Assembly (NCBI GenBank): GCA_018674495.1
Contig: JABHAA010000026.1
Coordinates: forward strand, 84,075-148,074
Source: Rhodospirillaceae bacterium
Lineage (GTDB): Bacteria; Pseudomonadota; Alphaproteobacteria; Rhodospirillales; UBA2165
Reading direction: 5' to 3'
DNA length: 64,000 nucleotides
Shown in pieces: positions 5,439 to 38,517 of the stretch. The translations under genes and the position numbers were made by a program. The notes beneath the pieces were generated by a model, which was given only the letters and a program-made list of their open reading frames with translations, ran no database searches and was not told the DNA's origin. The stretch's first letter is position 1; each line of letters opens with the position of its first letter.

Positions 5439-5445
5439 ACGCCGC

Positions 5446-6288
5446 TCAGCGCATCGCCGTTTCGATTGGCATCAGCTTTTCGCGGACGGCGCGTTCGCCA
5501 TCGGACAGGATTTTCACACCATCGCCAAAGGCAGTTTCGATCAGGCGAATACCATCGACCAGCCTCCGAAAACCGACAAGCTCCACCGAGGCGGCCTGGT
5601 CCGAGCCATACATGGCCCGGTCCAGCGTAATATGGCGTTCGATGGACGAAATGCCGATTGCCGCGGCGGCCATGGATATGACAATGCCGGTTTCATGACC
5701 GCTATAACCCACGTCGCATCCATAGCGATCGCGTAAGGTCTGGATAACGTTCAAATTGGCGTCCCTATCGGGCATCGGATACTGGCTGTTGCAATGCATC
5801 AGCTCGAACGGGCATCCGGCTTTGCGGAAAATTTCCACGGCCGCATCGATTTCCTCCAGCTCGGACATGCCGGTAGAAATGAAGGTGTGCTTTTTCTCTT
5901 CGGCGATCATTTGCAACAAAGCGTGATTTATAAGCTGGGCCGATGCCACCTTGTTATAGCGGCCTTCATATTGGCGCAAAAATTCCTGCGCCTCCAAATC
6001 CCACGCCGATGCGAACCAGGCAATCCTGTGCTCCTGGCAGCAGCGCTCGATCTCTGCAAATTCCGCCTCGCCAAATTCCAGCCCTTCTTTCTGGGCGCGC
6101 TGGGTCGTACCCCACGGGCTTTCGCGCGTTTGAGCGAGATAATCCGCGTTGTAAACCTTATCGATGGAGCGTTTCTGAAACTTGACCGCATCGGCGCCGC
6201 AATCGGCGGCACCGCTGATCAATTGCTTTGCGGTGTCGATATCGCCGTTATGATTGATACCAATTTCAGCGATAATAAATATTGCCAT
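5446..6288 (-). CDS. NeuB-family (N-acylneuraminate / ulosonate-phosphate) synthase, lacking the C-terminal SAF domain
   Basis: 280 aa. IIAEIGINHNGDIDTAKQLI..A..CGADAVKFQ is the canonical NeuB N-terminus. The protein ends right after the TIM barrel, about 60 aa shorter than NeuB proteins that carry the SAF/antifreeze-like domain. Confidence 0.85.
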   Translation of the reverse strand: MAIFIIAEIGINHNGDIDTAKQLISGAADCGADAVKFQKRSIDKVYNADYLAQTRESPWGTTQRAQKEGLEFGEAEFAEIERCCQEHRIAWFASAWDLEAQEFLRQYEGRYNKVASAQLINHALLQMIAEEKKHTFISTGMSELEEIDAAVEIFRKAGCPFELMHCNSQYPMPDRDANLNVIQTLRDRYGCDVGYSGHETGIVISMAAAAIGISSIERHITLDRAMYGSDQAASVELVGFRRLVDGIRLIETAFGDGVKILSDGERAVREKLMPIETAMR

Positions 6289-6315
6289 AATGTTCGGTCC
6301 TGAAAGCGTTAAGTT

Positions 6316-6786
6316 TTACAGTTGAAAATAACCGTCAATAAGCTCACGGATCACACCGTAGCCGCCCTCCGCTCGGGTGATGTGATGGGCGACGGCGCGA
6401 ATACTGGCATGAGCGTCGGCCGGCGCAATGGCGTGGCCAACCAGCGCCATTACGCCTGAATCGTTAATATCGTTGCCGACAAAGACGGCATCGGCCAACG
6501 AATAGTGATGTTCCGCCGCATATTTTTTGAGGACGGCAGCCTTGTCGTTGAGCCCCGAGATGCAAGGAATTCCAAGCTTGGCGGCGCGCGCCGCGACCAC
6601 CGGATTTTTTTCCATGCTCAAGATGATTTGCGAGGCGCCGGCGGCCTTCAGCATACCGATCGCAAGGCCATCGCCGCGATGAACCATAACCGATTCTAGC
6701 CCGTCTTCGCGAACCATGACCCGGTTGTCGGTCATGACGCCGTCGAAGTCGTAACAGATGACGGATATTTCAGATATTGGGATAAT
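6316..6786 (-). CDS. KdsC-like HAD-superfamily ulosonate-phosphate phosphatase (start codon uncertain, probably non-canonical)
   Basis: The listed ORF (6316-6735) has HAD motif IV (GNDINDSG). The HAD nucleophile motif DFDGV(M)TDN lies in frame immediately upstream of the first ATG. That upstream stretch has no ATG/GTG/TTG before the in-frame stop at 6802-6804, so I extended the gene to the ATT at 6786. Confidence 0.65.
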   Translation of the reverse strand: MIPISEISVICYDFDGVMTDNRVMVREDGLESVMVHRGDGLAIGMLKAAGASQIILSMEKNPVVAARAAKLGIPCISGLNDKAAVLKKYAAEHHYSLADAVFVGNDINDSGVMALVGHAIAPADAHASIRAVAHHITRAEGGYGVIRELIDGYFQL

Positions 6787-6832
6787 GGCGGGATCCGTTT
6801 TTTAGGGCCATAGCGTTTTTGCGGGGACCAGG

Positions 6833-6853
6833 CAAGCTACCGCAGCCCGGGTG
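6833..6853 (-). promoter_or_regulatory. ops/JUMPStart-like element in the leader of the nonulosonate operon
   Basis: The minus strand reads CACCCGGGCTGCGGTAGCTTG. The last 12 nt match the E. coli ops GGCGGTAGCGTG at 10/12. It shares 18/21 nt with the copy at 33264-33284. It lies between the predicted promoter (6947-6974) and the gene start (~6786). Confidence 0.5.
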
Positions 6854-6931
6854 AAAGCACTCATCCGCAGCATCGCACAAAGGCCTGAATAGCTACACTC
6901 GGGAAGGCATAAAGGCCCAATTTCCCAGCAT

Positions 6932-6975
6932 GTTCACGCTGCGAACACTATAGCGTTCAATCTGTGAACGTCAAG
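6932..6975 (-). promoter_or_regulatory. Sigma70-like promoter with two overlapping palindromic operators
   Basis: On the minus strand: -35 TTGACG (6974-6969), 16-nt spacer, -10 TATAGT (6952-6947). Palindromes are GTTCAAtctGTGAAC (6955-6969, in the spacer) and GTTCACgctGCGAAC (6932-6946, at the start-site region). The same architecture is at 34515-34557. Confidence 0.55.
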
Positions 6976-7053: not shown

Positions 7054-9258
7054 CTATTTGGCGGCAATTTCTTCCAGCTTGATGACCGCAATCTCAGTGC
7101 CGGCAATCAGGGTAAGATTGATGCGTTCGAATTCGCTTGGCAGTTCGAGAGCATAGCGGACGCAGCGCGCCTCGCTTTGACTCACGCTCAGGCGCGCGCC
7201 GCCAACCGATACCGAGCCCTTTGGGGCGGATTTCAGCGAAGCGAAACAGGTTCGGATGCGGATATTACCGCTTACCGGAGCGGGTAAAATTATGCGCGGA
7301 TCGGCGGACCCGCCATAGCCGGCGTCTTGGCGATAGGATTTGACCAGGCGACGTCCATCGGAATATTCGATCTCAAATGTTGTGCCGAACTGATTTTCAA
7401 TATTGCCTTCGCCGCGAGCCGCGAGCTTGATGAAGCGCGCCGGATTCAGATTATTTCGAAACAACAATGTCTTGGCATCGGAAAGCCGCCGGGCAAGGAA
7501 ATCCCAGTCGCCATCCTCGTCGATGTCGATCCAACCCAGCGGATAGATGGTTCCGCTGGCGGATCCTGAAATGGCCGGCAACAGATCCATCAATTTTCCC
7601 TGATGAAAGCTCAACAGTCGCCCAGGCTGCGCCGTAAGTATGTCGCCCCGGCCGTTAAAGTCGAAATCCTTGGCCCGCAGATAGGTGTTGAACCCATAGA
7701 AATGCCGCTCTGATTCCACCACCCGTTTAAAGGGCCTGGCACGCTCGCCGGTGCCCAAAAACAGTTGCAGATAAAATTTTGGCATATGAACGCCAACGCC
7801 GTGATAATTCAGGATAAAGTCCATAATGCCATCGCCATTGACGTCTTCCAGCAATCCGCCTTCATCAATCCGCGTCGGCATGTCACATACGATTTCAGGG
7901 AGTTGATCGCCACAAACCTGTCGGAATTTTCCGTCTTCATTGCGAAACAAAAAGCCATAGGCAAACAAATCGATATCGCCATCGCCATCGAAATCGCCGA
8001 TGTCGGATCCTTCGGAATAAACCGCGCCCGGCGACCAATTCAACAGATTTAGCGCCTGATCGGAAAAGGTGCCATCGGCGTTTTCCACATACAGTTTGTT
8101 CTCGGAATATCTCGGGTGGGGATATCCCGACCAAATTATGTCCAGCCGCCCATCGCTATTGGCATCGAAAAACAAAAGCGGCTCCAGCTTCCGGTACATT
8201 TGGGGTGCCCCATCAGGAAACAATTTTGCCGTGACGTTCTTCCAATTGTCCAAGTTAATCTGGCGGAACACCTGCCCCTTGATGGCCGGCTTCGATACGG
8301 GATACCAAAAGAGCTTCTTCAAGTAGCCATTTTCAAATGCCGATTCCGGATTGGGCCCGAAATTCGCGACGACCAAATCTAGTCGACCGTCCCGATCTAG
8401 ATCAGAAAAGTTGAAGCTGCCCAGTGTGTCCGACTTTAATACATCCAGGAAATTGGCCTTTTTGATCAGAACTCCCTTTTTGTTCAACCACAACCCTATC
8501 TCTCTAGATTCGTCGAAACCCACAAGGTCGTAATAGCCGTTGCCGTCTATATCGATAATACTCTGAACGGTAGTCCTCAGATCCAATTCTTCAATGCTGA
8601 ACAAGTCCGTCCGCATCCGCGCCGAACTTGGTACTTCGGATCCATTCCTTTGGGTTGTCTTGTCAGGATTGTCCGCAGAATAGGTCGCCTCTTTGGCGGT
8701 AGGCATCCGCGCCGCATCATACCTCTCTTCCACAGTCAAGTTACGACCGAATATGTTGAACATGGCTATATAGAAAGCGACAATACCGGTGCCGAGAAGC
8801 AAGCCCTTGAACGGCGATGCAACTGCTGGAAACACCCCGGTGGGCGGATTACTGAATTTAACCAGAGCCAATAAATAATAGAAAAACGGATAGACGCTGG
8901 CGTAAATCAGCGCAAAGACAACGCCCACCAGCAATCCACGGGGGTCCGTGGGAAAAAACGGTTGATGCAGCAAGGCAGATACGGGAATCGCCGCCACAGC
9001 CGCCAACAAAAAGCGCAAAATTCCCACTTCCCGCCCACGTAACCGGATAAAGAAAATTGCGCAGACGAGTAGAAGCGCCACCAAGTAAAACGGAAGCATA
9101 TCGAGCAGATAAATCGATAATTGCCTAATTTTATACGAGCCTGGAAATATTTCCCAAATTCGAAATTTAGAGGAAAAATGGGCAAAAAAGTATAATGCCA
9201 GCGCGGCCCCAGATGCCAATCCGTGCACAATTGCAGTGCCTGTTATTTTTCTAAACAT
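7054..9258 (-). CDS. CRTAC1-family protein: polytopic N-terminal membrane domain + FG-GAP/VCBS repeats + ASPIC/UnbV domain
   Basis: 734 aa. About 6 hydrophobic helices fill the first ~190 aa. These are followed by repeated Ca-binding-type D.DGDG..D motifs (DIDGNGYYD, DLDRDGRLD, DANSDGRLD, DFDGDGDID, DVNGDGIMD, DIDEDGDWD). The C-terminal GTTFEIEYSDGRRLVKSYRQDAGYGGSADP resembles ASPIC/UnbV. Confidence 0.7.
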   Translation of the reverse strand: MFRKITGTAIVHGLASGAALALYFFAHFSSKFRIWEIFPGSYKIRQLSIYLLDMLPFYLVALLLVCAIFFIRLRGREVGILRFLLAAVAAIPVSALLHQPFFPTDPRGLLVGVVFALIYASVYPFFYYLLALVKFSNPPTGVFPAVASPFKGLLLGTGIVAFYIAMFNIFGRNLTVEERYDAARMPTAKEATYSADNPDKTTQRNGSEVPSSARMRTDLFSIEELDLRTTVQSIIDIDGNGYYDLVGFDESREIGLWLNKKGVLIKKANFLDVLKSDTLGSFNFSDLDRDGRLDLVVANFGPNPESAFENGYLKKLFWYPVSKPAIKGQVFRQINLDNWKNVTAKLFPDGAPQMYRKLEPLLFFDANSDGRLDIIWSGYPHPRYSENKLYVENADGTFSDQALNLLNWSPGAVYSEGSDIGDFDGDGDIDLFAYGFLFRNEDGKFRQVCGDQLPEIVCDMPTRIDEGGLLEDVNGDGIMDFILNYHGVGVHMPKFYLQLFLGTGERARPFKRVVESERHFYGFNTYLRAKDFDFNGRGDILTAQPGRLLSFHQGKLMDLLPAISGSASGTIYPLGWIDIDEDGDWDFLARRLSDAKTLLFRNNLNPARFIKLAARGEGNIENQFGTTFEIEYSDGRRLVKSYRQDAGYGGSADPRIILPAPVSGNIRIRTCFASLKSAPKGSVSVGGARLSVSQSEARCVRYALELPSEFERINLTLIAGTEIAVIKLEEIAAK

Positions 9259-24525: not shown

Positions 24526-25401
24526 TCACCAACCCGAATACAGCTCCGATATTTTTGTGTCCCGTTCGGCATAAATGATCAGAAAGCCTTCGAAATCCAG
24601 CCGCTTCCACAATGGTTGCATCAGCCGCAACAAACCCCGGCGGGGATATTGCAGATAGATTTTCCGGTGGATGGTTTTGAAGCCGGCAAAGCGGACCAGA
24701 TATTCCCAGTCTTCCGGGTTCAATTCGAATATATGGAAATTTTCGGGCGTCAGGTCCTTATAGATTTCGGCATCAAAATTGCGCAGCTGGTAGCCGCCGA
24801 ACCGGCTGCGCTTGACGTAGGGAACCGAAAACAAAATTCGGTCGCCCTGACCCTCGGTCGCAAGGGCGCGAAAAAAGCCGATGGGGTCAATAAGATGTTC
24901 GACCATTTCGAAACTGGTATAGAGATCCGCATCGATGCCGTGTTCGTGAATTTTTTCGGCGCGCCCGAGCACCGCCCGCCCACCCTTGGCTTTGATTTTA
25001 TCGATGGCGCCGGGGTCAAGGTTTACCGAGACGATGTCCTTGATTTTGCCCTTGGGCGCCAGCGCTTTCAGCACTTCGGCATGGGTTCCGGCCGAATCGC
25101 CAATATCCACAATGGTCAAGCCGTCGCCGGAAAAATGGTCCAGCGCTTCCAAAACGCTTTTGATCTGAAACGCGTGCAATCCCCGTAATTTGTATTTCCA
25201 GTAGCGCTCATACTCGGTGCGGTCAAACTCGTTGGTGTATTGATCGATCAGGTCGGGAACGATTTTCTCCATATCCGCAAACAGCGAATAGCGCCCGGTT
25301 TCCTTGGCTGCCGAAATGACCGACGCAGCCGAAAGCCGCTGATACAAATCCGTCGTATCGAGCCCAAACCCGCGCAATATTGATTTGATCAGCCTAAGCA
25401 T
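24526..25401 (-). CDS. Class I SAM-dependent methyltransferase
   Basis: Motif I is LTIVDIGDSAG. I chose the internal ATG at 25401, which overlaps the upstream stop by 8 nt, over the listed start at 25479. Confidence 0.6.
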   Translation of the reverse strand: MLRLIKSILRGFGLDTTDLYQRLSAASVISAAKETGRYSLFADMEKIVPDLIDQYTNEFDRTEYERYWKYKLRGLHAFQIKSVLEALDHFSGDGLTIVDIGDSAGTHAEVLKALAPKGKIKDIVSVNLDPGAIDKIKAKGGRAVLGRAEKIHEHGIDADLYTSFEMVEHLIDPIGFFRALATEGQGDRILFSVPYVKRSRFGGYQLRNFDAEIYKDLTPENFHIFELNPEDWEYLVRFAGFKTIHRKIYLQYPRRGLLRLMQPLWKRLDFEGFLIIYAERDTKISELYSGW

Positions 25402-26455
25402 CCGGCGGCCCCGGTTCGGCCACGCCGTTATCCAAATTCCACCGCGCTTTCCATTCGGGATCGGCGCAATAGATGTCATAGACCAGCTTCATGGTATTGA
25501 ACGCGTCCCTAGACGAGCCATTGGTGATAGCGTGATCGCCGGCAATGGCGCCCGCAAACTCGGCAATTTCCGCGGCCCAGGATGTGTCATTTTTGTAGCG
25601 GGTGATGTGCTCTTCGGGATCGCCGTCGAAGACGCCGTTCGTGCGCGCCACGGTCATGGTTTCCTCGCCATAGCTTTTCGATCCCGAAAGGATACCGTTG
25701 AGGGTGATCGAGCCTTTTTCCAGTGTAATGTCGAACTGGAATCGGTGCCGCCATTCGGTCGCCGAGGAATGCAGCATGGCAACCACGCCCGTATCAGAGC
25801 GCATCAGCGCATAGGCATTATCCTCCACATCGTGGTTCCAATAGCTGTTGGAGACAACGCTGGAAATCTCCGGATACTCGCCGCCAAACAGGCGCATGAG
25901 ATCGACCATGTGAATGCCTTGATCAAGCAGAATACCGCCGCCAGCAATCTCGCGCTTGGTGCGCCAGTCGGATTGAAAATTGATCATCACCGATTTACCA
26001 TAGACGCCGCGAATATTGATCACCCGGCCCAATTCGCCGGACGCGACGATGTCGAGGGCGCCCGCAACCGAATCATGGTAGCGGTGATTGAAGCCGTATT
26101 TGAGCTTAAGCCCGGTGGTATTCTCTTCACAGGCAATGACGCGCTGAATGTCATCGAGATTGCGACCAGGCGGTTTTTCGCAAAGAGTGTGGAACCCGTG
26201 TTGCAGCGAGGCGATGGTAACCTCGGCAGCGACATCGTTGGTCAGGCAAATAAAGGCGACATCCAGATCTTCGGTGAACAATCGGGAATAGTGGGGATAA
26301 TAATTGATGCCGTCTTCCAATTGGCCTTCATCAGAATATTTCCGGTCGCAGACCGCCACCACCCGCATATCGTCGCGGCTATCGATATATTGCCGGCGGC
26401 GCTGACCGACGACGCCGTAACCGGCGATACCGACGCGTAAACGCTCGGCCGTCAT
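25394..26455 (-). CDS. Gfo/Idh/MocA-family oxidoreductase
   Basis: 353 aa with Rossmann RVGIAGYGVVG and EKP motif LCEKPPG. Overlaps the upstream gene by 4 nt. Confidence 0.8.
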   Translation of the reverse strand: MTAERLRVGIAGYGVVGQRRRQYIDSRDDMRVVAVCDRKYSDEGQLEDGINYYPHYSRLFTEDLDVAFICLTNDVAAEVTIASLQHGFHTLCEKPPGRNLDDIQRVIACEENTTGLKLKYGFNHRYHDSVAGALDIVASGELGRVINIRGVYGKSVMINFQSDWRTKREIAGGGILLDQGIHMVDLMRLFGGEYPEISSVVSNSYWNHDVEDNAYALMRSDTGVVAMLHSSATEWRHRFQFDITLEKGSITLNGILSGSKSYGEETMTVARTNGVFDGDPEEHITRYKNDTSWAAEIAEFAGAIAGDHAITNGSSRDAFNTMKLVYDIYCADPEWKARWNLDNGVAEPGPPDA

Positions 26456-27225
26456 TCGCCAATATCCATATAGTGGCGGGTCCAGGGATCGGCCTTCAGC
26501 ATTTCTTCGGCACGGTCCCTGTCGGCCGGCGTATCAACGCCTAGGGTTGGCCGGTCTGCGATAACGACGCTCACCTCAAATCCGTTTTCGAGGCCGCGCA
26601 GGATATCGATCTGCTCGGCCTGCTCCAAAGGGGTCGGCGGCATCTTGGAAAACTGATCGATGAACGAGCGGGTAAAGCAGATGATCCCGGTCTGCTGGTA
26701 GGCGGGCGCGGGGTCATCCCGAAAACAGGCGGGGATCGGCGCCCTCGAAAAATACAACGCCTTGCCGGTAGGCGCCGCGACCACCTTGACCCGGTTGGGA
26801 TCGGTGAGGTCGGCCTCATTGGCCAGCGGCGAGATCACGTTGACGATTTCGGAGCCGCCTTTGGCGAACTTATCGGCGACCGCATCGCCCATATCGGGCC
26901 CAAACAGAATTTCATCGCCCTGCACCATCAGCACCGGTGCATCCGGCGCCAGATCGGGCTGGAAATTTTGAATGGCCTGCTGAGTGCGGTGCATTGCGCT
27001 GGGCTGCGCTTCATCGGTCATGACGACGGTAGCGCCGAAACCCTCAGCGGCGTCCTTGATCGACCCATCGCACGTGGCAATCACCACCGGGCCCAGCTTT
27101 TTGGCCAGCCGGCAGCGCTCATATATATGTTGCACCATCGCCAGGCCAAGCATCGGAACCAACGGCTTACCGGGAAAGCGGCTGGAATTCATGCGCACCG
27201 GAATGACGCAAATGGGCGCCGTCAT
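26452..27225 (-). CDS. KdsB-like (CMP-ulosonate synthetase family) cytidylyltransferase
   Basis: 257 aa. N-terminal VIPVRMNSSRFPGKPLVPMLGLAMVQHIYER matches the IPAR..S.R.PGKPL...G.pMi signature of 3-deoxy-manno-octulosonate cytidylyltransferases. Confidence 0.75.
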   Translation of the reverse strand: MTAPICVIPVRMNSSRFPGKPLVPMLGLAMVQHIYERCRLAKKLGPVVIATCDGSIKDAAEGFGATVVMTDEAQPSAMHRTQQAIQNFQPDLAPDAPVLMVQGDEILFGPDMGDAVADKFAKGGSEIVNVISPLANEADLTDPNRVKVVAAPTGKALYFSRAPIPACFRDDPAPAYQQTGIICFTRSFIDQFSKMPPTPLEQAEQIDILRGLENGFEVSVVIADRPTLGVDTPADRDRAEEMLKADPWTRHYMDIGE

Positions 27226-28016
27226 TTCTGCAGGTCCCCAAACCCTTTGAGGGCATCGCGCATCGCCGTCAAATCGGTGCCGTAGGCAACGAAGCGAAAG
27301 CCTGACTTTATTTTGGCACGCAGCTCATCCAGATCCGTGCCCACCTGATGAATGCCTGGCGCTTTGCCGAACCGGCGGCAGGCATCCAAAACTGTGTCCA
27401 GCTTTTCCTGAAATTCAGGCCCAGAAAAATCACCGTGGGCGCCCATGCTGGCGGACAAATCGTAGGGCCCGATGAACACCGCGTCGGTCAGATCGGAGCC
27501 GATGATTGCCTCGGCCTCGGCGACGCCGCGCATGGTTTCAATCTGCGGCACCAGGAACGGACGGAACCCGGGCACAAGTTCATCGAACCGGTCGCCCCAT
27601 TGGTTGGCCCTGGATAGTCCGACGCCGCGGGTGCCGGCCGGCGGATAATGGCAGTGGCGGGCGAATTCGGCGAAATCATCGGCGCTTTCGACAACCGGTA
27701 TGATCAGCCCCTCTGCGCCGGCGTCCAAAAGCCGGCGGGCCAAGTACGGATCGGCGCTGGGAAGACGCACGAACGGGGTGGCTCCATGACGCTCGGCGGC
27801 GGCAAAAATAGAGATGGCGCTCTCGATATCAGCGGCGCCGTGCTCCATATCCACGGCCAGCCAATCGAAGCCGAGGGACGCCATCGCCTCGGCGGCCAGC
27901 GCCGAGGCGGAGGTAAGCCAGCAGCCGATGGAAGCCTCACCGGCGGCCAATTTATTTCGGATTTCGCTGATCATGTCATACATCTCATTCGGCAAAAATG
28001 GCCGCCCAAACCCCAT
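27222..28016 (-). CDS. HpcH/HpaI-family (class II, pyruvate-dependent) aldolase
   Basis: 264 aa with GCWLTSASALAAEAMASLGFDWLAVDMEHG, FVRLP and PQIET, typical of the 2-keto-3-deoxy-acid aldolase TIM barrel. Confidence 0.75.
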   Translation of the reverse strand: MGFGRPFLPNEMYDMISEIRNKLAAGEASIGCWLTSASALAAEAMASLGFDWLAVDMEHGAADIESAISIFAAAERHGATPFVRLPSADPYLARRLLDAGAEGLIIPVVESADDFAEFARHCHYPPAGTRGVGLSRANQWGDRFDELVPGFRPFLVPQIETMRGVAEAEAIIGSDLTDAVFIGPYDLSASMGAHGDFSGPEFQEKLDTVLDACRRFGKAPGIHQVGTDLDELRAKIKSGFRFVAYGTDLTAMRDALKGFGDLQK

Positions 28017-29574
28017 AATTCACATCGGCAAAAACCTGCTCGCGGGGAACCGGGCTGGGGCGCGGTAGATCTGAAAATGCGCCGGAAATATCGTCGCGCC
28101 CGGCGAAAGGCACGCTAACGTTTTCGGGCAATATGTCAATTGCGACCACTTGTTCGGCAACGAAGCGCAAGGTCGGTATGCCGGCAAAATAGGCTTCCAG
28201 CCCGACCGCCGAGGCGGCATAAAGAACGCCTGAGACCGCGCCCTGTTCCGGCAGCGGCGCATCGGTTCTTTCAAAACCCGGCGTATCTTCGAATGTCATC
28301 GGTAGCATCGGATGCGGCTTGACCAGAAAGCGAATGCCATCTTTGGCGGCAGCGCGAATGGCGCTCATCATTTCGGCGCCCACCGCGCCGGCGAAGGGCA
28401 GCGCCGCGAACACCGGCGCGGATGTATCAAAGCTGCATTTGGCAGGTCCAGAAAATCGGAATGCGCCGGCGATCTGCAAACGCTCTTCGGGCATCGACCA
28501 TTTCGCCAATTGGGCATAATAGGGCGCACCGATGCACAACACCCGGTCCGGAATGCTGGCCAGATAATCCACATTGGAAAGCGGCGCATAGTTGAGCATG
28601 TGCCGTCCGACCATAGAATGCTGATAGCCGACGGTGCCGATGCCAAGGGCATGGGCGCGGCGCACAAAGCTTCGCTCCCAGGAATGGTTTTCCCACGGCC
28701 AGGCGACAAGGACGGGGGCCATATCGGTCAGCCACCGTTGCTGGCAATGGTTCTGCCAGCGTATCATGGCGGCGGTGCCGGTGCCGCCTTCCCGCGCCGC
28801 CGCCCGCGCCACCAGCCAGCCATATGGGCCCTGCAAATGGCGCCTGGCGGGCCGCCAGCGGGCAAACGGCAGCGAGAATGCGTAGCGCCAATTGCCCCAG
28901 CCATTGAGGCTGACAGTGCCCGGATGCCGGGTCAGTTTTGCCAGTAACGGATCGATGCAATCCACATGCAGGATGCGCCGAAGGCCCGGATAAATTTGCA
29001 ACAGATCACCGAAATAGGCGTCCTTGCCCTCGGCGTCGCTGTAGGGATGTCCATAGGCCAGCAACCATTGCCCGCCCTTTGCGCCGGGCGTTGGGCGGTG
29101 CCCGTAAGTCCAAATGCGCCGCAGCACGGTGATCACGGTCTTGGCGCGCGCCGCATAGCCGCGGACAAACAGACGTAGTGCGGCGGGCCACAACCTTGGC
29201 GGCCGCCCGGCATCGACGCCGGGCCAGTTCTTTAAATGGCGATACAGCCAAGGGTCATCGCAAATCACCAGGGTCTTAGCGTCTTCGCCCGCCCATTCGT
29301 TGATCAGCTTTGTCCAGGCCAGCATGGTGCCGAAGTCCGACGCGTTGGTGACGCAGGCCGGCGTATGGGCGAGGGCAGAGGATGGATCGCCGGAAAGAGC
29401 TTTGCCGATGGCAAACCATTGCTCGGCACATTGATCGAAGGCGGCCTCCAGCTTGAGACCAACCCCAGGCCGCCGCCGCTCTCTCGGCAATGAGGCTGGA
29501 TCACCCGAAAGCACAACCCAACTGTCATAGCCGGCAGTGGTGGCTTGATCAGATCTACGCAAAATTACCGGCAA
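27985..29574 (-). CDS. Conserved-looking protein of unknown function (possible GT-B-like transferase for the CMP-activated sugar)
   Basis: 529-aa ORF in the operon frame, overlapping the aldolase gene by 32 nt. I recognise no motif. The transferase idea comes only from its position next to a cytidylyltransferase. Confidence 0.4.
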   Translation of the reverse strand: MPVILRRSDQATTAGYDSWVVLSGDPASLPRERRRPGVGLKLEAAFDQCAEQWFAIGKALSGDPSSALAHTPACVTNASDFGTMLAWTKLINEWAGEDAKTLVICDDPWLYRHLKNWPGVDAGRPPRLWPAALRLFVRGYAARAKTVITVLRRIWTYGHRPTPGAKGGQWLLAYGHPYSDAEGKDAYFGDLLQIYPGLRRILHVDCIDPLLAKLTRHPGTVSLNGWGNWRYAFSLPFARWRPARRHLQGPYGWLVARAAAREGGTGTAAMIRWQNHCQQRWLTDMAPVLVAWPWENHSWERSFVRRAHALGIGTVGYQHSMVGRHMLNYAPLSNVDYLASIPDRVLCIGAPYYAQLAKWSMPEERLQIAGAFRFSGPAKCSFDTSAPVFAALPFAGAVGAEMMSAIRAAAKDGIRFLVKPHPMLPMTFEDTPGFERTDAPLPEQGAVSGVLYAASAVGLEAYFAGIPTLRFVAEQVVAIDILPENVSVPFAGRDDISGAFSDLPRPSPVPREQVFADVNYGVWAAIFAE

Positions 29575-29604
29575 GGAATCCTGCGCGGCTGGATTTTCCG
29601 GGCC

Positions 29605-31203
29605 TCAATCATACGTCGCTGATTTGCCACGGGTGATGTCGTCCACAGTCAGCATCCGGTTTTCAAGCAGCTTGGCGTCGTCTTCCCAGTTTTGCTCTTC
29701 ATCGCCGCCGGCGTGGAAATAAGAGTTGGCATAACGTGCGCGCAGCTCGTCATAAATCCGATTGCCTTCTTCGTCGTCCTTTTCGGCGCGTTCGATCAAC
29801 GGCCAGTCTTTTTCCGGAAAGCGCACATAAAGGGCGAAGGTTTTGCGCAAGCCCAGCACCTCTTCACGGGACAACTGCGGCTGGTCCAGGGCGAAATCCG
29901 ACAGGAACGATCCCGGCGTATGGTCCGGCTCGATAAAGCCTTCCTTAACGCAGACGGTTTGTAGATCGGTGCCATGGAACGGCGCGAACGGAGAGGCGTT
30001 GACGCTGTCGAAGGTCAGGTTGCGGTTCAGGTGAACGGTGTCGAATATCAATTCGCGGGTCTCACCGGGAAAGCCGATGATATTGTTGACCGTGAGCGGT
30101 ATCTCCGCCTGCTCGACAATTTCCGACGCCTTGATCATGTCGATATTGTCGAAGCGTTTGTGAATGACGCGGGAGCGGAAATCTTCGTTGCCGTGCTCCA
30201 AACCCATGGACATGCGGTGGCATCCCAGTTCGGCCAATCGCTCGATCCGCTCTTCGGTGACAGTTTCGGCGCGGGTTTGAATCCAGAACGGCAATTTGTA
30301 GCGGGCATAAACCTCGCAAAATTCGTCGAACTCTTGGTCGTTAAACAGAATGAATGTGTCGGAGGCGAAATACACATACTCCGCATCGTGGACGCGCACC
30401 AACTCTTCCAATTCCCGGCCGATGGCGGCGGCGGATTTCTTGCGGAAGAACCCCGAAGTGCCGTTGTCCCGATACATCTTCAACGTATAGGGCGAATTGC
30501 AGAAGGTGCATTTATAGGGACAGCCGCGATTGGTCTCAACGGGCACGGCACGATAAATCTTGCCGCCCATGGGACGCAACAAACGCTCGGGCTCGAACAG
30601 GCTGTAATCGGGGACCGGCTGGGCGCTGATATCTTCCAAGGGACGCATGGGGTTTTGCACCAACTGGCCACCATCGAGATAGGCCAGATTGGCGATGGAA
30701 CGGACGTCTCCCCCGGCCGCCAAGGCCTGGCAGATATCAACTAGCAATCCTTCGCCTTCGCCCATGCACACATAATCGATATGCTTGTTTTGCAAGATGA
30801 GTCTTGGTGCCGAGTAGGCGAGAACGCCGCCGGCCAGAACCGGCGCCGGATAATCGCCGATGGCATCGAGCAGCTTCAACGCCGGCGCGTAGGTGATTTC
30901 CAAAATGGAGGCGACAATCAGATCGGGCTTGAAGTCATCGATGATCTTGACGAAGTCGTCGACCATGTCGGTGGTCTTCAATTTGGAGCGCCGCACCGCA
31001 TCATCGACCGGGGTGGATTGCATGAAGCGCTCTTTGGCATCGTCCGATGTGATCGATGTCGCTTCGGTGTAAAAGGTGGTGTCGAACAACGCCAGCTCGA
31101 CGCCTTCACGCTTCAAAAGCGCCGTGAACAGGCCGACCGATATGGGCGGCGGGTTCATCAGTGTGCCGTTAGGATAGATGAATAGGACTTTGAATTTATT
31201 CAT
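29605..31203 (-). CDS. B12-binding-domain radical SAM enzyme (class B), paralogue 4
   Basis: 532 aa. N-terminal FKVLFIYPNG... Rossmann-like domain, then TNRGCPYKCTFCNS. Confidence 0.85.
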   Translation of the reverse strand: MNKFKVLFIYPNGTLMNPPPISVGLFTALLKREGVELALFDTTFYTEATSITSDDAKERFMQSTPVDDAVRRSKLKTTDMVDDFVKIIDDFKPDLIVASILEITYAPALKLLDAIGDYPAPVLAGGVLAYSAPRLILQNKHIDYVCMGEGEGLLVDICQALAAGGDVRSIANLAYLDGGQLVQNPMRPLEDISAQPVPDYSLFEPERLLRPMGGKIYRAVPVETNRGCPYKCTFCNSPYTLKMYRDNGTSGFFRKKSAAAIGRELEELVRVHDAEYVYFASDTFILFNDQEFDEFCEVYARYKLPFWIQTRAETVTEERIERLAELGCHRMSMGLEHGNEDFRSRVIHKRFDNIDMIKASEIVEQAEIPLTVNNIIGFPGETRELIFDTVHLNRNLTFDSVNASPFAPFHGTDLQTVCVKEGFIEPDHTPGSFLSDFALDQPQLSREEVLGLRKTFALYVRFPEKDWPLIERAEKDDEEGNRIYDELRARYANSYFHAGGDEEQNWEDDAKLLENRMLTVDDITRGKSATYD

Positions 31204-31305
31204 TGGAATATTTATAAACTACCTTGGAACTGTCTATCAATTAAAAGGTCTGAGCCGGAATGCGCCCATGGTATCGCCAATCGAAAGCGCCCGGCCAATA
31301 GCCAA

Positions 31306-31336
31306 ACCATATCTTGTTCATAGAATGAACGTCAAG
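31306..31336 (-). promoter_or_regulatory. Sigma70-like promoter with palindromic operator upstream of the rSAM-4 operon
   Basis: On the minus strand: -35 TTGACG (31335-31330), 18-nt spacer, -10 TATGGT (31311-31306). A perfect palindrome GTTCATagaATGAAC (31316-31330) abuts the -35, the same layout as at 6955-6974 and 34537-34556. Confidence 0.5.
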
Positions 31337-31356
31337 GAATGAAAGCCTGGATTTCA

Positions 31357-32226
31357 TCATTCCAGCATCCTCGACAGCTGCCCGGCGGACTGACGGTAAC
31401 GGCCATCAAGGCCGCCTTCGAGAACTAGGTCCAGATAGGTATCGGGCAAGTCCGCCTCAATCTGATCGGCCAGCAACGCATAGCGACCGGTGGCCTCTGA
31501 ATTGACGCCGCGGATACCGCTTCGGCAATATTTGTAGTAATTCGATATTAGGGCCAAGGCATCACCATGGATGCTGTCGATATTTCCAAAGGCAAAAGCA
31601 TACCAATCGACACGCGCTTTCAATTCTTCTTCGATGCGCGCCCCGGCGCCGCTGATTTCGCGCGCCAGCGCCTCTCCTGTCAAATCCGACAATCTCTGGT
31701 GGCCCATACCATGGGCGCCGACGGTATGGCCCATGGCACGAAGCTCGCCCAATTCGGACCATGTCATCAGGCGCCGATCTTCAGATATCTGGCGCCAATC
31801 GAGATTGCCTCTGAATATATTTGAAGCGATTGCCCGAGCCTGCGCCTCACCTTCCAAATCCACCAGCTCGGGGCAGACGAAAAACAGGGCTTTCACGCCG
31901 TGTCCTGCAAGGCATTTTGCGGCCACCCCGAAATTGGAAACAAAGCCATCATCGAAACTGATCAAGACCGGCAAACTCCCCCAATCATTGGCCGGATGTT
32001 CCGGGGGTGCCCCATCCAGCAGCAATTCTGCCTCTTCCGGCGACAGGATTTTTCGAGATACCTTCAAATCTTCCAAAAATCGCTCGAAGGCCATAATTTG
32101 CACGGCAGGAATATCGTGCAGCATCAGAATTCGAAATGCCGAGGCTGGCGGGCGGCCCTTGAAATTGTTGATGACGCGCCGGGCGGTCAGCCACGGTGCG
32201 GCGACTTGGTAGCGCAGCTTGTTCAA
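31357..32226 (-). CDS. NodB-homology polysaccharide deacetylase
   Basis: Motifs ISFDDG and AHGMGH. I chose the TTG start at 32226, which forms a TTGA start/stop overlap with the upstream FemAB-like gene and follows GAGGG. The listed 358-aa ORF (to 32433) would overlap that gene by 210 nt. Confidence 0.75.
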   Translation of the reverse strand: MNKLRYQVAAPWLTARRVINNFKGRPPASAFRILMLHDIPAVQIMAFERFLEDLKVSRKILSPEEAELLLDGAPPEHPANDWGSLPVLISFDDGFVSNFGVAAKCLAGHGVKALFFVCPELVDLEGEAQARAIASNIFRGNLDWRQISEDRRLMTWSELGELRAMGHTVGAHGMGHQRLSDLTGEALAREISGAGARIEEELKARVDWYAFAFGNIDSIHGDALALISNYYKYCRSGIRGVNSEATGRYALLADQIEADLPDTYLDLVLEGGLDGRYRQSAGQLSRMLE

Positions 32227-33239
32227 GCGGCCCTCGCCTTCGATACCCGCCAGCGCACAAGGCGCTGGATCAGGCCGCCACCAACCGCCTCTATTTCTGG
32301 GGCCAACCGGTAGGGCACTCCGTTCATTCCGGTTTTGAATTGCAACACACCCGGCGCGGTTAGTTCCGGATCGACGCCGCCAAGATCGAAATTTTTGAAA
32401 CCGGTTTTCTGCAATTCCACAAGCGCCCGCCAAAGAAGCAATTGACCAGCATTATTTTTGCGTCCGGCATCGGTGCTGGTGCCGGCCAGATATTCAGCGG
32501 CGGTGCCATAGCGGGCGATCAGCGCCGAAGCAATCGGAGCGCCATCCAGATAGGCTGTGAACACCTTCAGTTTGCGCGCCTCGGGCAAGCAACGCTGCAA
32601 GCCGGCAAGAAGGTCTGGCGTCACGGATGTGGTAAATCCGCGACCACCGACAAAGGCCCGGTAACTTTCCAGGAACTCGGCGAACAAGTCGGCACCTGTG
32701 CCCGACGCAATTTCCAGGTTCGCCCTTTCCGCCTTGTTGAGGCAGTTCCGCCATTTCTGTTTAAGCCCGGCCCGAAGATCATCTTGGGCGCGTGTCAGAT
32801 CGAGAACGGTTGATGCCCACCCCGACATTCCGGCATCTTGAAGGCCGCATGTTGATGCATCCAGAATAGTTGTTTCGCCCGGCACATGGCTCGGCGCAAG
32901 GCGCAGATACATGCCCCGCTCCAAGACATAGTAGGAATACAATTGGTGCAACGCCTCGCCATAAACCTCTGGCCCCTGGCCCGTGGTTGTCTGCCACAAA
33001 GGCGCCCGATTTATCCAGACCAGGCCGCCCGAAAACACCGGTATGGGGCGGATCAGCGCTTGAAATATGCTGGTAATTTCCTGGCCAGAGTGGAGCACAC
33101 CCCGCTCCACGCGCCAGCCGCCGTCTTCGGTCTTGGCTTCGCCATAGGCCCAGTCCTGCACCAGACTTCGATCACCGAACCGGGATTGCAGCGCATCCCA
33201 TTCGGAGCTCGAAAAATCGCGAATTTCAATTTTGCTCAT
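32223..33239 (-). CDS. FemAB-family (GNAT-fold, aminoacyl/peptidyl-transferase-like) protein
   Basis: I chose the start at MSKIEIRDFSS. The C-terminal AEYLAGTSTDAGRKNNAGQLLLWRAL....GFKNFDLGGV is typical of FemAB / lipid II glycyltransferase-like acetyltransferase folds. Confidence 0.7.
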   Translation of the reverse strand: MSKIEIRDFSSSEWDALQSRFGDRSLVQDWAYGEAKTEDGGWRVERGVLHSGQEITSIFQALIRPIPVFSGGLVWINRAPLWQTTTGQGPEVYGEALHQLYSYYVLERGMYLRLAPSHVPGETTILDASTCGLQDAGMSGWASTVLDLTRAQDDLRAGLKQKWRNCLNKAERANLEIASGTGADLFAEFLESYRAFVGGRGFTTSVTPDLLAGLQRCLPEARKLKVFTAYLDGAPIASALIARYGTAAEYLAGTSTDAGRKNNAGQLLLWRALVELQKTGFKNFDLGGVDPELTAPGVLQFKTGMNGVPYRLAPEIEAVGGGLIQRLVRWRVSKARAA

Positions 33240-33263
33240 ACGGATATATTGGCTTCGATTTTC

Positions 33264-33284
33264 CACGCTACCGCACGCCGGGTG
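33264..33284 (-). promoter_or_regulatory. ops/JUMPStart-like element directly downstream of the NusG-paralogue gene
   Basis: The minus strand reads CACCCGGCGTGCGGTAGCGTG. The last 12 nt match the E. coli ops GGCGGTAGCGTG at 11/12. It lies 24 nt upstream of the FemAB-like ATG. Confidence 0.55.
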
Positions 33285-33330
33285 CAACGGAACGAACCCG
33301 GCGGGCACAGTTTCCGCGTCTCGCCCGGCG

Positions 33331-33840
33331 CTAGGTTGTCAGCGCGCCGCTTGGTGTCACAATGCGAAGGCGCCGGCCCAAGATTTCCAGCAATACCACG
33401 CTCCGGTCTTTCGAGGCTTCGGCTTCGAATATGCCGGTGAGGCTGGCCAGCGGTCCGGACACGATCTTGACCGCGTCGCCTTGGGCCAAGTGCAAAAATT
33501 TATCCAGCAGGACGACGCCGCGCTCGTTCTCGCAGGCGCGTACTTCGTCGACAAAGCTACTCGGCACCGGTACCGGCGCATCGCCCTGGCAAACAAGATT
33601 GCTTACCCCGATTGTCGAATGGATGGCGCGCCAGCGTACATTGTCAAGACTCATACGGACGAACAGATATCTTGGGAAAAGGGCCTTTCGGACCCATTCT
33701 GTACGGCGCGCGTGCCTTCGTTGTTTTAGATGCTCGGGCAAATACACATCGAAGCCTTGATTGGCCAGATTGAATCTGGCCTTGGCTTCGGCGTTCGCCT
33801 GGGTATGGACCGCGTACCATTTTTCCATCGGGGTAATCAC
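33331..33840 (-). CDS. Specialised NusG paralogue (RfaH/UpxY-like transcription antiterminator)
   Basis: 169 aa. NGN domain (WYAVHTQANAEAKARFNLANQGFDVYLP...FPRYLFV) plus KOW motif (GDAVKIVSGPLASLTGIF). Its GTG start forms a GTGA overlap with the regulator gene upstream. Confidence 0.8.
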   Translation of the reverse strand: MITPMEKWYAVHTQANAEAKARFNLANQGFDVYLPEHLKQRRHARRTEWVRKALFPRYLFVRMSLDNVRWRAIHSTIGVSNLVCQGDAPVPVPSSFVDEVRACENERGVVLLDKFLHLAQGDAVKIVSGPLASLTGIFEAEASKDRSVVLLEILGRRLRIVTPSGALTT

Positions 33841-34520
33841 ATCAAGGTTGGTTGGGTTCGGGAGATATTCAAAAACCGGGGCGCTAGGATGGTTTGGGGC
33901 GGCACCTGTTTCGAGATCGTATCAAAAGTTTTTTGCGATGTTTCCAAATCGGTGATGATGACCGCATCGAATGCGCCGATATTTTGCAAATCGGTGAACA
34001 CTGCAAGATCGGAAAATTGAGCATCCCCAAATTTTGCGTCAACGATGCCAATCAGTTCCACCGGAAATTCCTTGGCGCACAGGATGGCAATCTCGGTCAA
34101 ATCGCTACAGCCGCAAAATATGATCCGGCGCAAATTCTGCTGCTCGCAGGTCTGATAGATGTCCGTGCATTGATTGCGCATTTCGCGAAAAAAATTGAAA
34201 GATATGGATAGATATTCAGCCGTCAGCCGGCTTTTTTCGGCGAAACCCTTGGGCGTCAGATAATAGGCAAAGCGGTTGGCCGGCGCCTGGTTGACCTTGA
34301 TGAGACCCTTTTTGATGCAGCGTTTAAGATACGTGTTGGCAAGGCCGAGCGCGATGCCCAACTCCTTGGACACCGAGCGCTGGGTAACCGTTGAGTCACC
34401 CTCGACCGCGTTCAGAAGACCAAGCGTGATTTTGGTTTCCGAGCCAACGGTGCTTTCGGACTGGTTCTCGGCCAAGCTGATTCCCCCTAGGGCCGTTAAA
34501 AAAGGGCCCGCCGCGTTCAA
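33837..34520 (-). CDS. Winged-helix (MarR-like, EPS-locus type) transcriptional regulator with extra C-terminal domain
   Basis: HTH region is LGLLNAVEGDSTVTQRSVSKELGIALGLANTYLKRCIKKGLIKV. The C-terminal ~110 aa (RIIFCGCSDLTEIAILCA...) looks Rossmann-like. An alternative TTG start at 34475 follows GGGGGA. Confidence 0.7.
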   Translation of the reverse strand: MNAAGPFLTALGGISLAENQSESTVGSETKITLGLLNAVEGDSTVTQRSVSKELGIALGLANTYLKRCIKKGLIKVNQAPANRFAYYLTPKGFAEKSRLTAEYLSISFNFFREMRNQCTDIYQTCEQQNLRRIIFCGCSDLTEIAILCAKEFPVELIGIVDAKFGDAQFSDLAVFTDLQNIGAFDAVIITDLETSQKTFDTISKQVPPQTILAPRFLNISRTQPTLM

Positions 34521-34557
34521 TGCGTGAACATACCTCGTTCACGATGTGAACGTCAAC
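34515..34557 (-). promoter_or_regulatory. Sigma70-like promoter with two palindromic operators upstream of the regulator operon
   Basis: On the minus strand: -35 TTGACG (34556-34551), 18-nt spacer, -10 TATGTT (34532-34527). A perfect palindrome GTTCACgatGTGAAC (34537-34551) and GTTCAAtgcGTGAAC (34515-34529) lie 22 bp apart. Confidence 0.55.
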
Positions 34558-37041: not shown

Positions 37042-38517
37042 TTAGCTGGATTGCATCTCTTCGAAGAAAGATTGCTTGTCGTTCAAAATCTGGCGCAGCG
37101 AGTTACTGCCGGAATGCTCATTGATGCGGGCTTCGAACTCCCGGGCGAGAGATTTGAGATCCTCGGCGCTAAATTCCTTGGTGGCGATCAGCGGCTCGCC
37201 ATAATACTGGGTTGCGGTCAGATAATCTTCGTCGGAGATATTTTCGTCGATCATGTTGTGCTCGACCGCCACGTCGTATAGCTCGGTTCCGTAGAGCGGC
37301 GTTGCGAACAGCATGATCGGCACCACTTTGTAGTCCTTGAACAGGCGCACCGCCAACTCCACCGTTTCGCGCATGTCTGACATGGTTTCGCCAGGGAAGC
37401 CCATTATATAAAAGGCACACATATTGATCTTTAATTCGGCGCAATAACCAACAATCTCGATAACTTTTTCAAGGATGGTGTCTTTTTTGACAATCGTGTC
37501 GAGTACCTTCTGGTTGCCCGATTCGATGGCCAGTTGAACCCCGGCGCAACCGGACTTTTTGATTTTCTCGACGATGCGGTAATTCAAGCTGTCGGCGCGG
37601 ATGCCGTTCGGCGTGTCCCACTGGATGTCCATTTTCGCATCGATGATACCGTCCAGGATCGCCTCGAAGCGGAGCGGCTTGAAGGAAATATTATCATCTT
37701 CGAGATGGAAATTGGTAATCCCCATTTCCTCGACACAATATTTGAAATGACGCAGGACATATTCTGGCGAATGAAAGCGAAACTTCTTGCCCATATGCAG
37801 TTTGATCGAGCAAAAGACGCAATTGAACGGGCAGCCGCGGCTGGTGATGATCGAAACTGATTTGGTCGGGATCGCGGAGCGACTTTTATAGAGGTTCGGA
37901 TTGTTAAGATAGTCATCCAGGTTCAACAGGTCGTACGCGGGCAGCGGCAACTCATCCAGATCATCCAATGGGCGGCGTTTGGTATATTCGACCTTGCCGT
38001 TGGTTTTGTGGGCGACGCCTTCGATATTTTCCAACGATTCGCCGGCGCCAAAACGCTCGATAAATTCGCGGAAGGTCACCTCGCCCTCGCCGACAACGCA
38101 GAAATCGCAATCGCCGTCGTCGAGCAATTTGGCGTAACGGACGCTGGGGTGCGGGCCGCCCAGCACAACGGTTATTTCGGGATCGATATCGCGGCAAAGG
38201 GCGGAGATACGCAGCCCGTTTTCCGACTGGCTGGAAAAGGGAATGGAAATTCCGACGATGTCGGGCGCGTAGTCTTCGATCGCGACCCGGACTTTTTCGA
38301 TGGGTGTGCCGTAAGTGACAAACCCGCCCACCTCCACGGCTTCAAAATCCTCGATCAAGCAGTCAAAGATTTTAACGTCGCAAATATCCTTGGTGGTCGC
38401 GGCAACGTACAAAAGGCTGAGCGGGAAGTAGACGTTAAATCCAAGGGCCTGACCCTTATATTTATGGGGCGGATTTATCAGCAGTACGCGCGGCTGTTTC
38501 TTGGACAAAGTATTCAC
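37042..38517 (-). CDS. B12-binding-domain radical SAM enzyme (class B), paralogue 5
   Basis: 491 aa with VVLGGPHPSVR, then TSRGCPFNCVFCS. Flanked by 434-bp and 360-bp non-coding spacers. Confidence 0.85.
   Translation of the reverse strand: MNTLSKKQPRVLLINPPHKYKGQALGFNVYFPLSLLYVAATTKDICDVKIFDCLIEDFEAVEVGGFVTYGTPIEKVRVAIEDYAPDIVGISIPFSSQSENGLRISALCRDIDPEITVVLGGPHPSVRYAKLLDDGDCDFCVVGEGEVTFREFIERFGAGESLENIEGVAHKTNGKVEYTKRRPLDDLDELPLPAYDLLNLDDYLNNPNLYKSRSAIPTKSVSIITSRGCPFNCVFCSIKLHMGKKFRFHSPEYVLRHFKYCVEEMGITNFHLEDDNISFKPLRFEAILDGIIDAKMDIQWDTPNGIRADSLNYRIVEKIKKSGCAGVQLAIESGNQKVLDTIVKKDTILEKVIEIVGYCAELKINMCAFYIMGFPGETMSDMRETVELAVRLFKDYKVVPIMLFATPLYGTELYDVAVEHNMIDENISDEDYLTATQYYGEPLIATKEFSAEDLKSLAREFEARINEHSGSNSLRQILNDKQSFFEEMQSS

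Follow-up and report, generated by a model that had tools for sequence, protein, structure and literature searches.

An ops-like element beside an RfaH-like gene, in a putative portable cassette at the head of alphaproteobacterial polysaccharide operons

RfaH and the ops element serve as the model of how an elongation factor is loaded at a specific sequence and of how a protein switches folds, and to our knowledge nearly everything known about them comes from Enterobacteria. In this study we analysed a 64,000-nucleotide stretch of DNA from a Rhodospirillaceae bacterium (GenBank assembly GCA_018674495.1, contig JABHAA010000026.1, positions 84,075 to 148,074 of the forward strand; hereafter the window, numbered from its first letter), in which the 12-mer TGCGGTAGCGTG, here called ops1, follows a gene for an RfaH-like paralogue of NusG. 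An initial annotation, made from the sequence alone, had described this 12-mer as an 11/12 match to the E. coli ops (GGCGGTAGCGTG) on the minus strand; it lies at 33275..33264, with positions 2-12 identical and the only mismatch at position 1 (T in the window). In our view, the 12-mer is likely to be a true ops-type element, at which polymerase pauses and takes up the RfaH-like factor whose gene lies directly upstream, and to belong to a portable cassette that heads variable polysaccharide operons in one alphaproteobacterial clade.

The window system shares with E. coli RfaH/ops the best-matching protein model (RfaH), ops positions 2-12, the pause frame, the C3:G8 pair with the G4-A7 loop, and the placement in the transcribed leaders of long, Shine-Dalgarno-poor operons for envelope glycans. 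JUMPstart carries a hairpin directly upstream of ops, and so does the window element. Unlike the E. coli gene, which is monocistronic and unlinked, the window gene lies inside its target transcription unit and is paired with a MarR-like regulator. In addition, the hairpin (GGGTGA/TCACCC) is unrelated in sequence to that of JUMPstart, ops position 1 is T, residues K10, R73 and E48 are unconserved in the family (the window protein also lacks H20 and R23), and the C-terminal domain is predicted to be a beta-barrel rather than an alpha-hairpin.

Among RfaH genes, 18% are alphaproteobacterial, and one cluster of them (CL4) has a helix-turn-helix neighbour (Wang et al. 2020, PMC7593976). The same study states that the recruitment of cis-encoded paralogues is unknown, and its evolutionary scheme has the ops contacts and autoinhibition arise together and late, while a 2026 preprint (bioRxiv, PMC13015549) argues that cis-encoded monomorphic (beta) RfaHs act independently of ops. 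The window system resembles these monomorphic RfaHs in its cis-encoding, its predicted NusG-like C-terminal domain, the loss of some ops-binding residues and its glycan neighbours, and it can be likened to CL4, by the published description only, through the helix-turn-helix neighbour. It differs from both as published (recruitment ops-independent or unknown) in having, after the gene, an ops that is strictly conserved and that turns up again at an unlinked operon. The literature that we searched, with most subscription journals outside its scope, yielded no description of ops, of the CACCC hairpin or of a marR-rfaH-ops cassette in Alphaproteobacteria.

Further parallels are found in UpxY/UpxZ of Bacteroides, in which a NusG-like factor is also encoded among the first genes of each polysaccharide locus, has another regulator as its partner and works through the leader of that locus. 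Unlike in that system, the window protein scores 76.5 bits with the UpxY model (cut-off, 100), its partner is a DNA-binding winged helix-turn-helix protein and not UpxZ, and the leader signal is ops. LoaP (Bacillus) and TaA (Myxococcus) are likewise cis-encoded NusG paralogues serving long biosynthetic operons, and LoaP recognises an RNA hairpin in the leader. These two systems differ from the present one in that their targets are polyketide operons without ops, and the LoaP model gives the window protein 50.2 bits (cut-off, 125).

Table 1. Coordinates of the window features discussed in the text
Feature	Coordinates	Strand	Basis or remark
ops1, TGCGGTAGCGTG	33275..33264	minus	putative site of pausing and of RfaH loading (non-template strand)
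Hairpin upstream of ops1: GCCGGGT / 12-nt loop / ACCCGGC	33302..33277	minus	stem-pair counts, covariation
RfaH-like NusG paralogue, 165 aa, NGN and predicted KOW-type beta-barrel	33331..33828	minus	models, alignment, AlphaFold2
MarR-like winged-helix gene with C-terminal extension	33837..34475	minus	HTH_24, TIGR04176
Putative promoter/operator P1: TTGACG(-35)-18-TATGTT(-10)	34556..34515	minus	motif conservation
Glycan operon after ops1	24526..33239	minus	extent estimated from gene packing
FemAB/GNAT-like gene	33239..32223	minus	first gene after ops1
Polysaccharide deacetylase gene	32433..31357	minus	glycan operon, second gene
Third putative promoter/operator copy, TTGACGTTCATTCTATGAAC	31335..31316	minus	before the B12-radical-SAM gene, inside the downstream gene run
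B12-radical-SAM gene	31203..29605	minus	glycan operon
Putative promoter/operator P2: TTGACG-16-TATAGT, GTTCA/TGAAC repeats as P1	6974..6932	minus	motif match
Second hairpin arm and ops: TTTCACCCGGGC-TGCGGTAGCTTG	6856..6831	minus	position-weight matrix, 34.5 bits, best in the window
Operon after ops2: 13-codon open reading frame, HAD phosphatase, NeuB, glyoxalase-like, SDR, carbamoyltransferase, more	41..6811	minus	

The TAG stop codon of the rfaH-like gene (33333..33331) is separated by 55 nt from ops1, which in turn precedes the ATG of the FemAB/GNAT-like gene (33239) by 24 nt, with no Shine-Dalgarno sequence ahead of this ATG. The initial annotation had correctly placed the motif ahead of the FemAB-like and deacetylase genes; its distance of 47 nt from the stop was short by 8, and the next gene is to be read from ATG 33239, not from the mechanical start of its open reading frame (ORF), GTG 33308. 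Its ORF for the NGN and KOW protein (33331..33840) stands as well, while the length of 169 aa gives way to 165 aa, the true start being almost certainly ATG 33828 (N-terminus MEKWYAVHTQ), because all 35 aligned homologues begin at this position with M-x-x-W-Y/F.

The evidence that carries the proposed ops function comes from other genomes. An alignment of 11 sequences, used as the locus query, retrieved 80 genomic loci from Rhodospirillales, Hyphomicrobiales, Xanthobacteraceae, Bradyrhizobium, Nitrobacter, Afipia, Pseudolabrys and others, with 43-56% identity to the window protein, and a marine contig (L082; 91% identity) brought the set to 81. A 36-sequence alignment was too diverse for locus finding, a scan of genome contigs with the single protein gave no loci, and a metagenome scan gave only one locus, 29% identical, which was left out of the analysis. 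The initial annotation had made its claim hang on the conservation of the motif at this position in related genomes, and TGCGGTAGCnTG (pattern [T/G]G[C/T]GGTAGC) is indeed present on the same strand, 46-101 nt after the stop of the homologue, in 59 of the 81 loci. One of the remaining loci is uninformative, as its sequence ends 21 nt after the stop. Across 61 sites, both window sites included, GCGGTAGC is invariant: G2 is found in 61, C3 in 60, and G4, G5, T6, A7, G8 and C9 in 61 each, while T11 occurs in 56 (a pyrimidine in 60), G12 in 56 and T at position 1 in 56, position 10 being free. Mutagenesis of the E. coli element showed that G4, G5, T6, A7 and G8 are needed for the recruitment of RfaH and not for pausing, which is set by T11 and G12 (PMC5995543). 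The invariance of G4-G8, dispensable as they are for pausing, therefore argues for read-out by a factor and not for a pause alone. With the gene and ops at the head of glycan operons in dozens of other Alphaproteobacteria, these comparisons show a real signal, whose age or distribution far exceeds that of the enterobacterial textbook case.

A match to ops with at most one mismatch is, in the window alone, unremarkable (0.31 expected; at least one in 27 of 100 shuffles of the window), and we hold the motif to be non-random because of its conservation in other genomes, not because of the window match alone. A position-weight matrix (PWM) built from 58 foreign sites only retrieved exactly two sites from the 64 kb, namely 33287..33262 (33.1 bits) and a second one 26 kb away (6856..6831), while all other positions stayed at or below 8 bits and 20 shuffles reached 9.7 at most. 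Together with the conservation in 59 loci, this already refutes a chance match, to which we attach virtually no probability. The second 12-mer (ops2, 6844..6833, minus strand) and ops1 both fit GCGGTAGnnTG and have the ops consensus GGCGGTAGnnTG with its pause frame (G2...T11 G12), and they match the full E. coli 12-mer at 10 and 11 of the 12 positions, respectively.

The element is specific in place and orientation. The loci, about 747 kb in total, contain GCGGTAGC 90 times, and some 60 of these copies are the sites after rfaH. Among 32 others, 4 have the CACCC arm described below, and each of these heads a co-oriented gene (2 on divergent operons upstream of marR, 2 a few kb downstream). All foreign sites (63/63) are co-oriented with the following gene. 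As a negative control, viral contigs were scanned for CACCCGNNNKGCGGTAGC: the 120 matches to these 15 specified bases have TG at ops positions 11-12 in 3 cases, the chance rate, versus 56 of the 61 real sites, and carriage of the element by phages was rejected on that ground. Decayed copies at the expected place after rfaH were seen in three of the loci without a site (L076 at 5492 of the plus strand, TTCACCCGGGCTGCGGCAGCAATCG, where GGCAG has T6 changed to C; L071; L080), which suggests occasional loss of the site.

The conserved sequence is longer than 12 nt. The motif CACCC, 9-5 nt upstream of ops, is invariant (61/61 sites), and the window copy (33285..33281) lies in the 3' arm of a hairpin. 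The typical hairpin reads cGGGTGA-loop-TCACCCGg, with a loop of 3-14 nt, and ends 1-3 nt before ops. Its mean perfect stem is 6.2 bp, versus 2.86 ± 0.28 when the 5' part is shuffled, and the pairs are compensatory at positions -2 (T-A, G-C, C-G, G-T), -3 (C-G, T-A, T-G), -10 (A-T, C-G, G-C) and -11 (A-T, C-G, G-C) relative to ops nucleotide 1. Stem pairs were counted with our own script and a 5'-arm shuffle control; MAFFT placed no gaps in the variable loop. The single-sequence folding energies of both window leaders are unexceptional (z = -0.65 and -0.43). The Rfam search of the whole window gave no match at E<=1, and the JUMPstart RNA family (RF01707) scored 11.9 bits against a gathering score of 35, through the ops end, with a 21-position middle section skipped.

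An inverted repeat such as GGGTGA/TCACCC might also act as double-stranded DNA, either as an operator for the MarR-like protein or, TAGCGT fitting TAnnnT, as a promoter of the downstream operon. We regard this as very improbable for the following reasons. First, the variable spacing of the arms (3-14 nt) and the unconserved left arm are unsuited to a dimer operator and better explained by a single-stranded hairpin. Second, another conserved palindrome, GTTCA-N5-TGAAC, stands at the real promoters. Third, all the sites are strand-specific, and RNA contigs enter both elements from upstream and run on through them. The spacing of the arms, the strand specificity and these read-through contigs led us to reject the element as a promoter or MarR operator, and the lack of a U-tract led us to reject it as an intrinsic terminator.

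The end of the hairpin lies 12-13 nt behind T11, and in the his-type pause a hairpin stands at a comparable distance behind the paused end. By analogy with such hairpin-stabilised pauses, the hairpin may prolong the pause at ops. This geometry and the conserved pause bases would also suit a pause or checkpoint that needs no factor, and that couples transcription to the translation of the Shine-Dalgarno-less first gene or lets Rho act, the RfaH-like protein being recruited elsewhere or non-specifically; the report that predicted monomorphic RfaHs are active in E. coli independently of ops (PMC13015549) points the same way. We find this explanation improbable, since G4-G8, which are not needed for pausing and are variable in consensus pauses, are nevertheless invariant here, and since the element accompanies this RfaH clade and is missing beside other RfaH-like clades.

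Together, the loci point to a full cassette, comprising a promoter/operator (TTGACGTTCA-N5-TGAAC), a MarR-like gene, the rfaH-like gene, the hairpin with ops, and variable glycan genes. The promoter/operator motif, TTGACGTT[C/G]A-N4-6-TGAAC, is found in 52 of the 81 loci, 600-1100 nt upstream of the start of the rfaH homologue and just before the marR-like gene, in a conserved layout in which a -35 hexamer fused to GTTCA-N5-TGAAC is followed by a TAnnnT -10 and then by a second repeat, GTTC-N5-6-TGAAC. In the window, two inverted repeats GTTCA-N5-TGAAC (34551..34537 and 34529..34515) overlap P1, and they are probably binding sites of the MarR-like regulator. The window holds three exact copies of the motif, all on the minus strand (34556..34537, 31335..31316 and 6974..6955), a count that no shuffle reached. 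The copy at 31335..31316, which no ops follows, is kept at the same place in the 91%-identical marine contig. These copies probably mark a regulon of the MarR-like protein, and the palindrome is a candidate operator for this uncharacterised MarR-type regulator.

Of the 81 loci, 70 have a marR homologue as the same-strand neighbour immediately upstream of rfaH, and a further 3 carry one at another place. The maximal ORF of the window gene opens at TTG 34520; its likely start is TTG 34475, after the Shine-Dalgarno sequence GGGGGA, and its stop codon overlaps the GTG that opens the mechanical rfaH-like ORF. The protein passes the cut-off of Pfam HTH_24 (36.5 versus 21.9 bits) and stays under the curated cut-off of TIGR04176 (MarR_EPS; 61.4 versus 88 bits). 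As for the second window site, ops2 lies about 95 nt past the predicted start of P2, and the composite unit of promoter, hairpin and ops (6974..6831) heads the NeuB operon.

The sequence is common in marine metagenomes and also occurs in metatranscriptomes, from four runs of which we used the assembled contigs (low depth, sparse) as evidence of RNA. The marR-rfaH pair is covered in all four runs, while the upstream acyltransferase gene is hardly touched, and the deepest contig (X26, depth 13) ends at 34504, near the start predicted from P1. The earlier claim that the antiterminator gene and its site share one transcript is borne out by a contig that spans 33234-33415, i.e. the 3' end of rfaH, the hairpin, ops1 and the next start codon, and by the finding of no promoter motif between the rfaH-like gene and ops1. 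At the second site, ops2 is covered in three runs by contigs that end at 6894-6914, with no contig over 7025-7588. As the RNA contigs run through the elements and end near the predicted promoters, the elements are located inside transcripts and are not promoters. At both window sites, ops is thus found on the non-template strand of a transcribed leader, as expected for RfaH.

The RfaH-like protein has the NGN and KOW-type C-terminal domain layout of RfaH, in accordance with its earlier description as a NusG paralogue. The RfaH model TIGR01955 comes top of the NCBIfam models (119.7 bits), ahead of the UpxY, NusG (66.6 bits; cut-off, 135.7) and LoaP models; these alignments cover residues 8-163, and Pfam NusG matches residues 3-96 with 79.7 bits. 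Its database relatives are named "transcriptional activator/antiterminator RfaH", and nearly all are from Alphaproteobacteria where taxonomy is given. E. coli RfaH reads ops G5 and T6 through just four side chains, those of K10, H20, R23 and R73 (PMC5995543). In an alignment with this protein (5OND), the window sequence shows Q10 for K10, N20 for H20, N23 for R23, K48 for E48 and I73 for R73, and it shares Q24 and T72. Across the 59 ops-linked members of the family, position 10 is Q or H, H20 is found in 70% and R23 in 85%, position 73 is I, V or F, position 48 is mostly A, and Q24 and T72 are invariant. The homologues at the 22 loci without ops (among L009-L081) have R at position 10 in 10/22 cases, versus Q or H in 53/59 with ops, G at position 71 in 9/22, versus S in 58/59, and R or L, not K, at position 16. 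These differences, at positions that face ops in E. coli, may reflect co-variation of protein and site, or phylogeny.

In autoinhibited RfaH, an alpha-helical C-terminal domain packs against the N-terminal domain, with a salt bridge between E48 and R138. E48 is needed for this state (PMC7593976); the window protein has K at this position and keeps the equivalents of R138, F130 and I93. AlphaFold2, run on the family-only alignment, predicts a beta-barrel C-terminal domain (residues 119-159; predicted local distance difference test score, pLDDT, 75-86; mean pLDDT, 87). In Foldseek the model aligns over its full length to NusG and to fully recruited RfaH (8phk), and by its N-terminal domain alone to autoinhibited RfaH (5ond, 2oug, 8pfg; root-mean-square deviation, 1.5-2.7 A). 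The models thus picture an RfaH-like factor that probably lacks the autoinhibited state, and that would be a "monomorphic beta" RfaH by the criterion of PMC13015549. The system appears to work like RfaH/ops, yet the protein departs from RfaH sensu stricto on three counts, namely the equivalog cut-off, the contact residues and the features of autoinhibition. A further observation concerns the KOW loop (residues 146-152, LLEILGR), in which L-G-R is invariant in the family. At this position, E. coli NusG presumably has F-G-R (which we take to be its Rho-contact loop) and E. coli RfaH I-N-K.

Several points weigh against an ops-type loading site. First, the RfaH equivalog cut-offs are missed (TIGR01955, 119.7 versus 144.5 bits; NF006534, 86.5 versus 124 bits). 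Second, the window protein has none of the four ops-reading side chains of E. coli RfaH, so that recognition would need other residues. Third, no site follows rfaH in 21 of the 80 informative loci, and the RfaH homologues of Cereibacter and Bradyrhizobium plasmids that we inspected (36-40% identity) are without marR and without ops. These plasmid homologues made us reject the idea of a cassette common to all alphaproteobacterial RfaH-like genes; the cassette marks one clade. Fourth, DNA carry-over is possible in the RNA contigs, and their depth just past ops1 (32520-33170) is zero in all four runs and patchy further on; most transcripts may end or decay at the hairpin and ops in situ, as at a checkpoint. 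Fifth, a signal in the non-template DNA and a signal in the RNA would have the same sequence, and sequence comparison cannot separate them.

The last point leads to the most serious alternative, in which the CACCC hairpin and GCGGUAGC form a leader RNA that is read by the RfaH-like protein or by another factor, or a structured attenuator, the likeness to ops being due to shared ancestry and not to read-out of the non-template DNA. A covarying hairpin, a protein lacking the DNA-contact residues of E. coli RfaH, a predicted NusG-like beta-barrel, and RNA contigs that are plentiful as far as the element and missing just past ops1 would all suit such an RNA, and LoaP provides the precedent. We nevertheless judge it unlikely, because invariance falls on precisely the bases required by E. 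coli RfaH in the non-template loop, along with the G2/T11/G12 pause frame, while no Rfam family matches and the lack of a U-tract speaks against an intrinsic terminator.

Returning to the ops-type loading site, which we prefer, we propose the following sequence of events. Polymerase would start at a sigma70-like promoter, at which the MarR-like protein gates initiation through the GTTCA-N5-TGAAC repeats, and would transcribe marR, rfaH, the hairpin about 30 nt after the rfaH stop, and then TGCGGTAGCGTG. There, G2, T11 and G12 would constitute a consensus elemental pause at T11, which the RNA hairpin in the exit channel may prolong. On the non-template strand, C3:G8 would close a small loop presenting G4-A7; the NGN domain of the RfaH-like protein would bind this loop, lock onto polymerase and exclude NusG and Rho. 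Polymerase, now processive and resistant to NusG and Rho, would complete the long glycan operon, and the C-terminal domain may aid the translation of its Shine-Dalgarno-poor genes. The NeuB operon, under the same promoter and hairpin-ops controls, would be served in trans. In a factor without an autoinhibited state, specificity would come from ops and from synthesis beside the main target.

The distance from the rfaH stop to ops stays within 46-101 nt, which places T11 at 57-112 nt past the stop. This spacing is compatible with a hand-off of the factor from the trailing ribosome, and equally with plain compactness; the divergent or distant ops sites imply that proximity is not obligatory. We offer only tentatively, as the less likely outcome, the view that the recognition of ops did not arise late in Enterobacteria as a refinement bound to autoinhibition, and that a clade that lacks K10, R73 and E48 and, by prediction, the alpha-state still depends on ops, reads it with other residues and owes its loading to proximity, the pause at the hairpin-reinforced ops coinciding with the release of new RfaH by the trailing ribosome. 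An "ancestral cis recruitment" of RfaH has been postulated (Belogurov 2009; PMC13015549). If proximity loading were true, it would be such a recruitment, but sequence-guided, and together with the MarR-type operator it would make a portable two-tier switch, acting at initiation and elongation, for glycan operons. As this large clade includes the cultivable Bradyrhizobium, Nitrobacter and Afipia, with a cis-encoded RfaH of predicted beta C-terminal domain followed by an invariant ops, three questions become directly testable: whether K10 and R73 are dispensable for reading ops, whether autoinhibition is a requirement for ops dependence, and whether the proximity of gene and site plays a role. 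For annotators, the 26-nt signature marks the leaders of surface-polysaccharide operons in these bacteria. The relevance should be moderate to high within the field of transcription elongation, and low elsewhere.

In most loci, the first gene after ops is a glycan gene (Polysacc_synt_2 dehydratases in 22/58), and the other genes found after ops encode GFO/IDH/MocA oxidoreductases, glycosyltransferases, DegT aminotransferases, asparagine synthase-like enzymes and ABC exporters. A Shine-Dalgarno sequence precedes the first of these genes in 5% of the loci versus 70% for rfaH, a suggestive difference that depends on naive start calls. Together with the length of the operon, it is an indirect hint of the suppression of polarity, the exclusion of NusG-Rho and the S10-mediated ribosome recruitment that characterise RfaH. 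In the window, same-strand genes after ops1 run on to about 11718, with a gap at 23669-24525. The operon after ops2 includes NeuB, a nonulosonic acid synthase, and its first long gene, for a HAD/KdsC-like phosphatase, has no ATG, GTG or TTG upstream of the catalytic DFDGV motif (region 6811..6735). The in-frame stretch opens after TAA 6804..6802, and the RNA contigs are without an indel here. A 13-codon ORF in another frame (6811..6770) starts 21 nt past ops2. The phosphatase gene may have a non-canonical start or a frameshift, or the 13-codon ORF may encode a leader peptide.

Just upstream of P2, a 734-aa membrane protein with FG-GAP/VCBS repeats is encoded at 7054..9258 (minus strand), where none of the four runs has RNA contigs, and a 1565-aa ORF without assigned function occupies the window end (59213..63910, minus strand). 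Lastly, the glycan island encodes two B12-binding radical-SAM enzymes (29605..31203, with best matches, all far under cut-off, to P-/C-methyltransferase-type families, and 37042..38517; both minus strand), an unusual chemistry for a polysaccharide locus.

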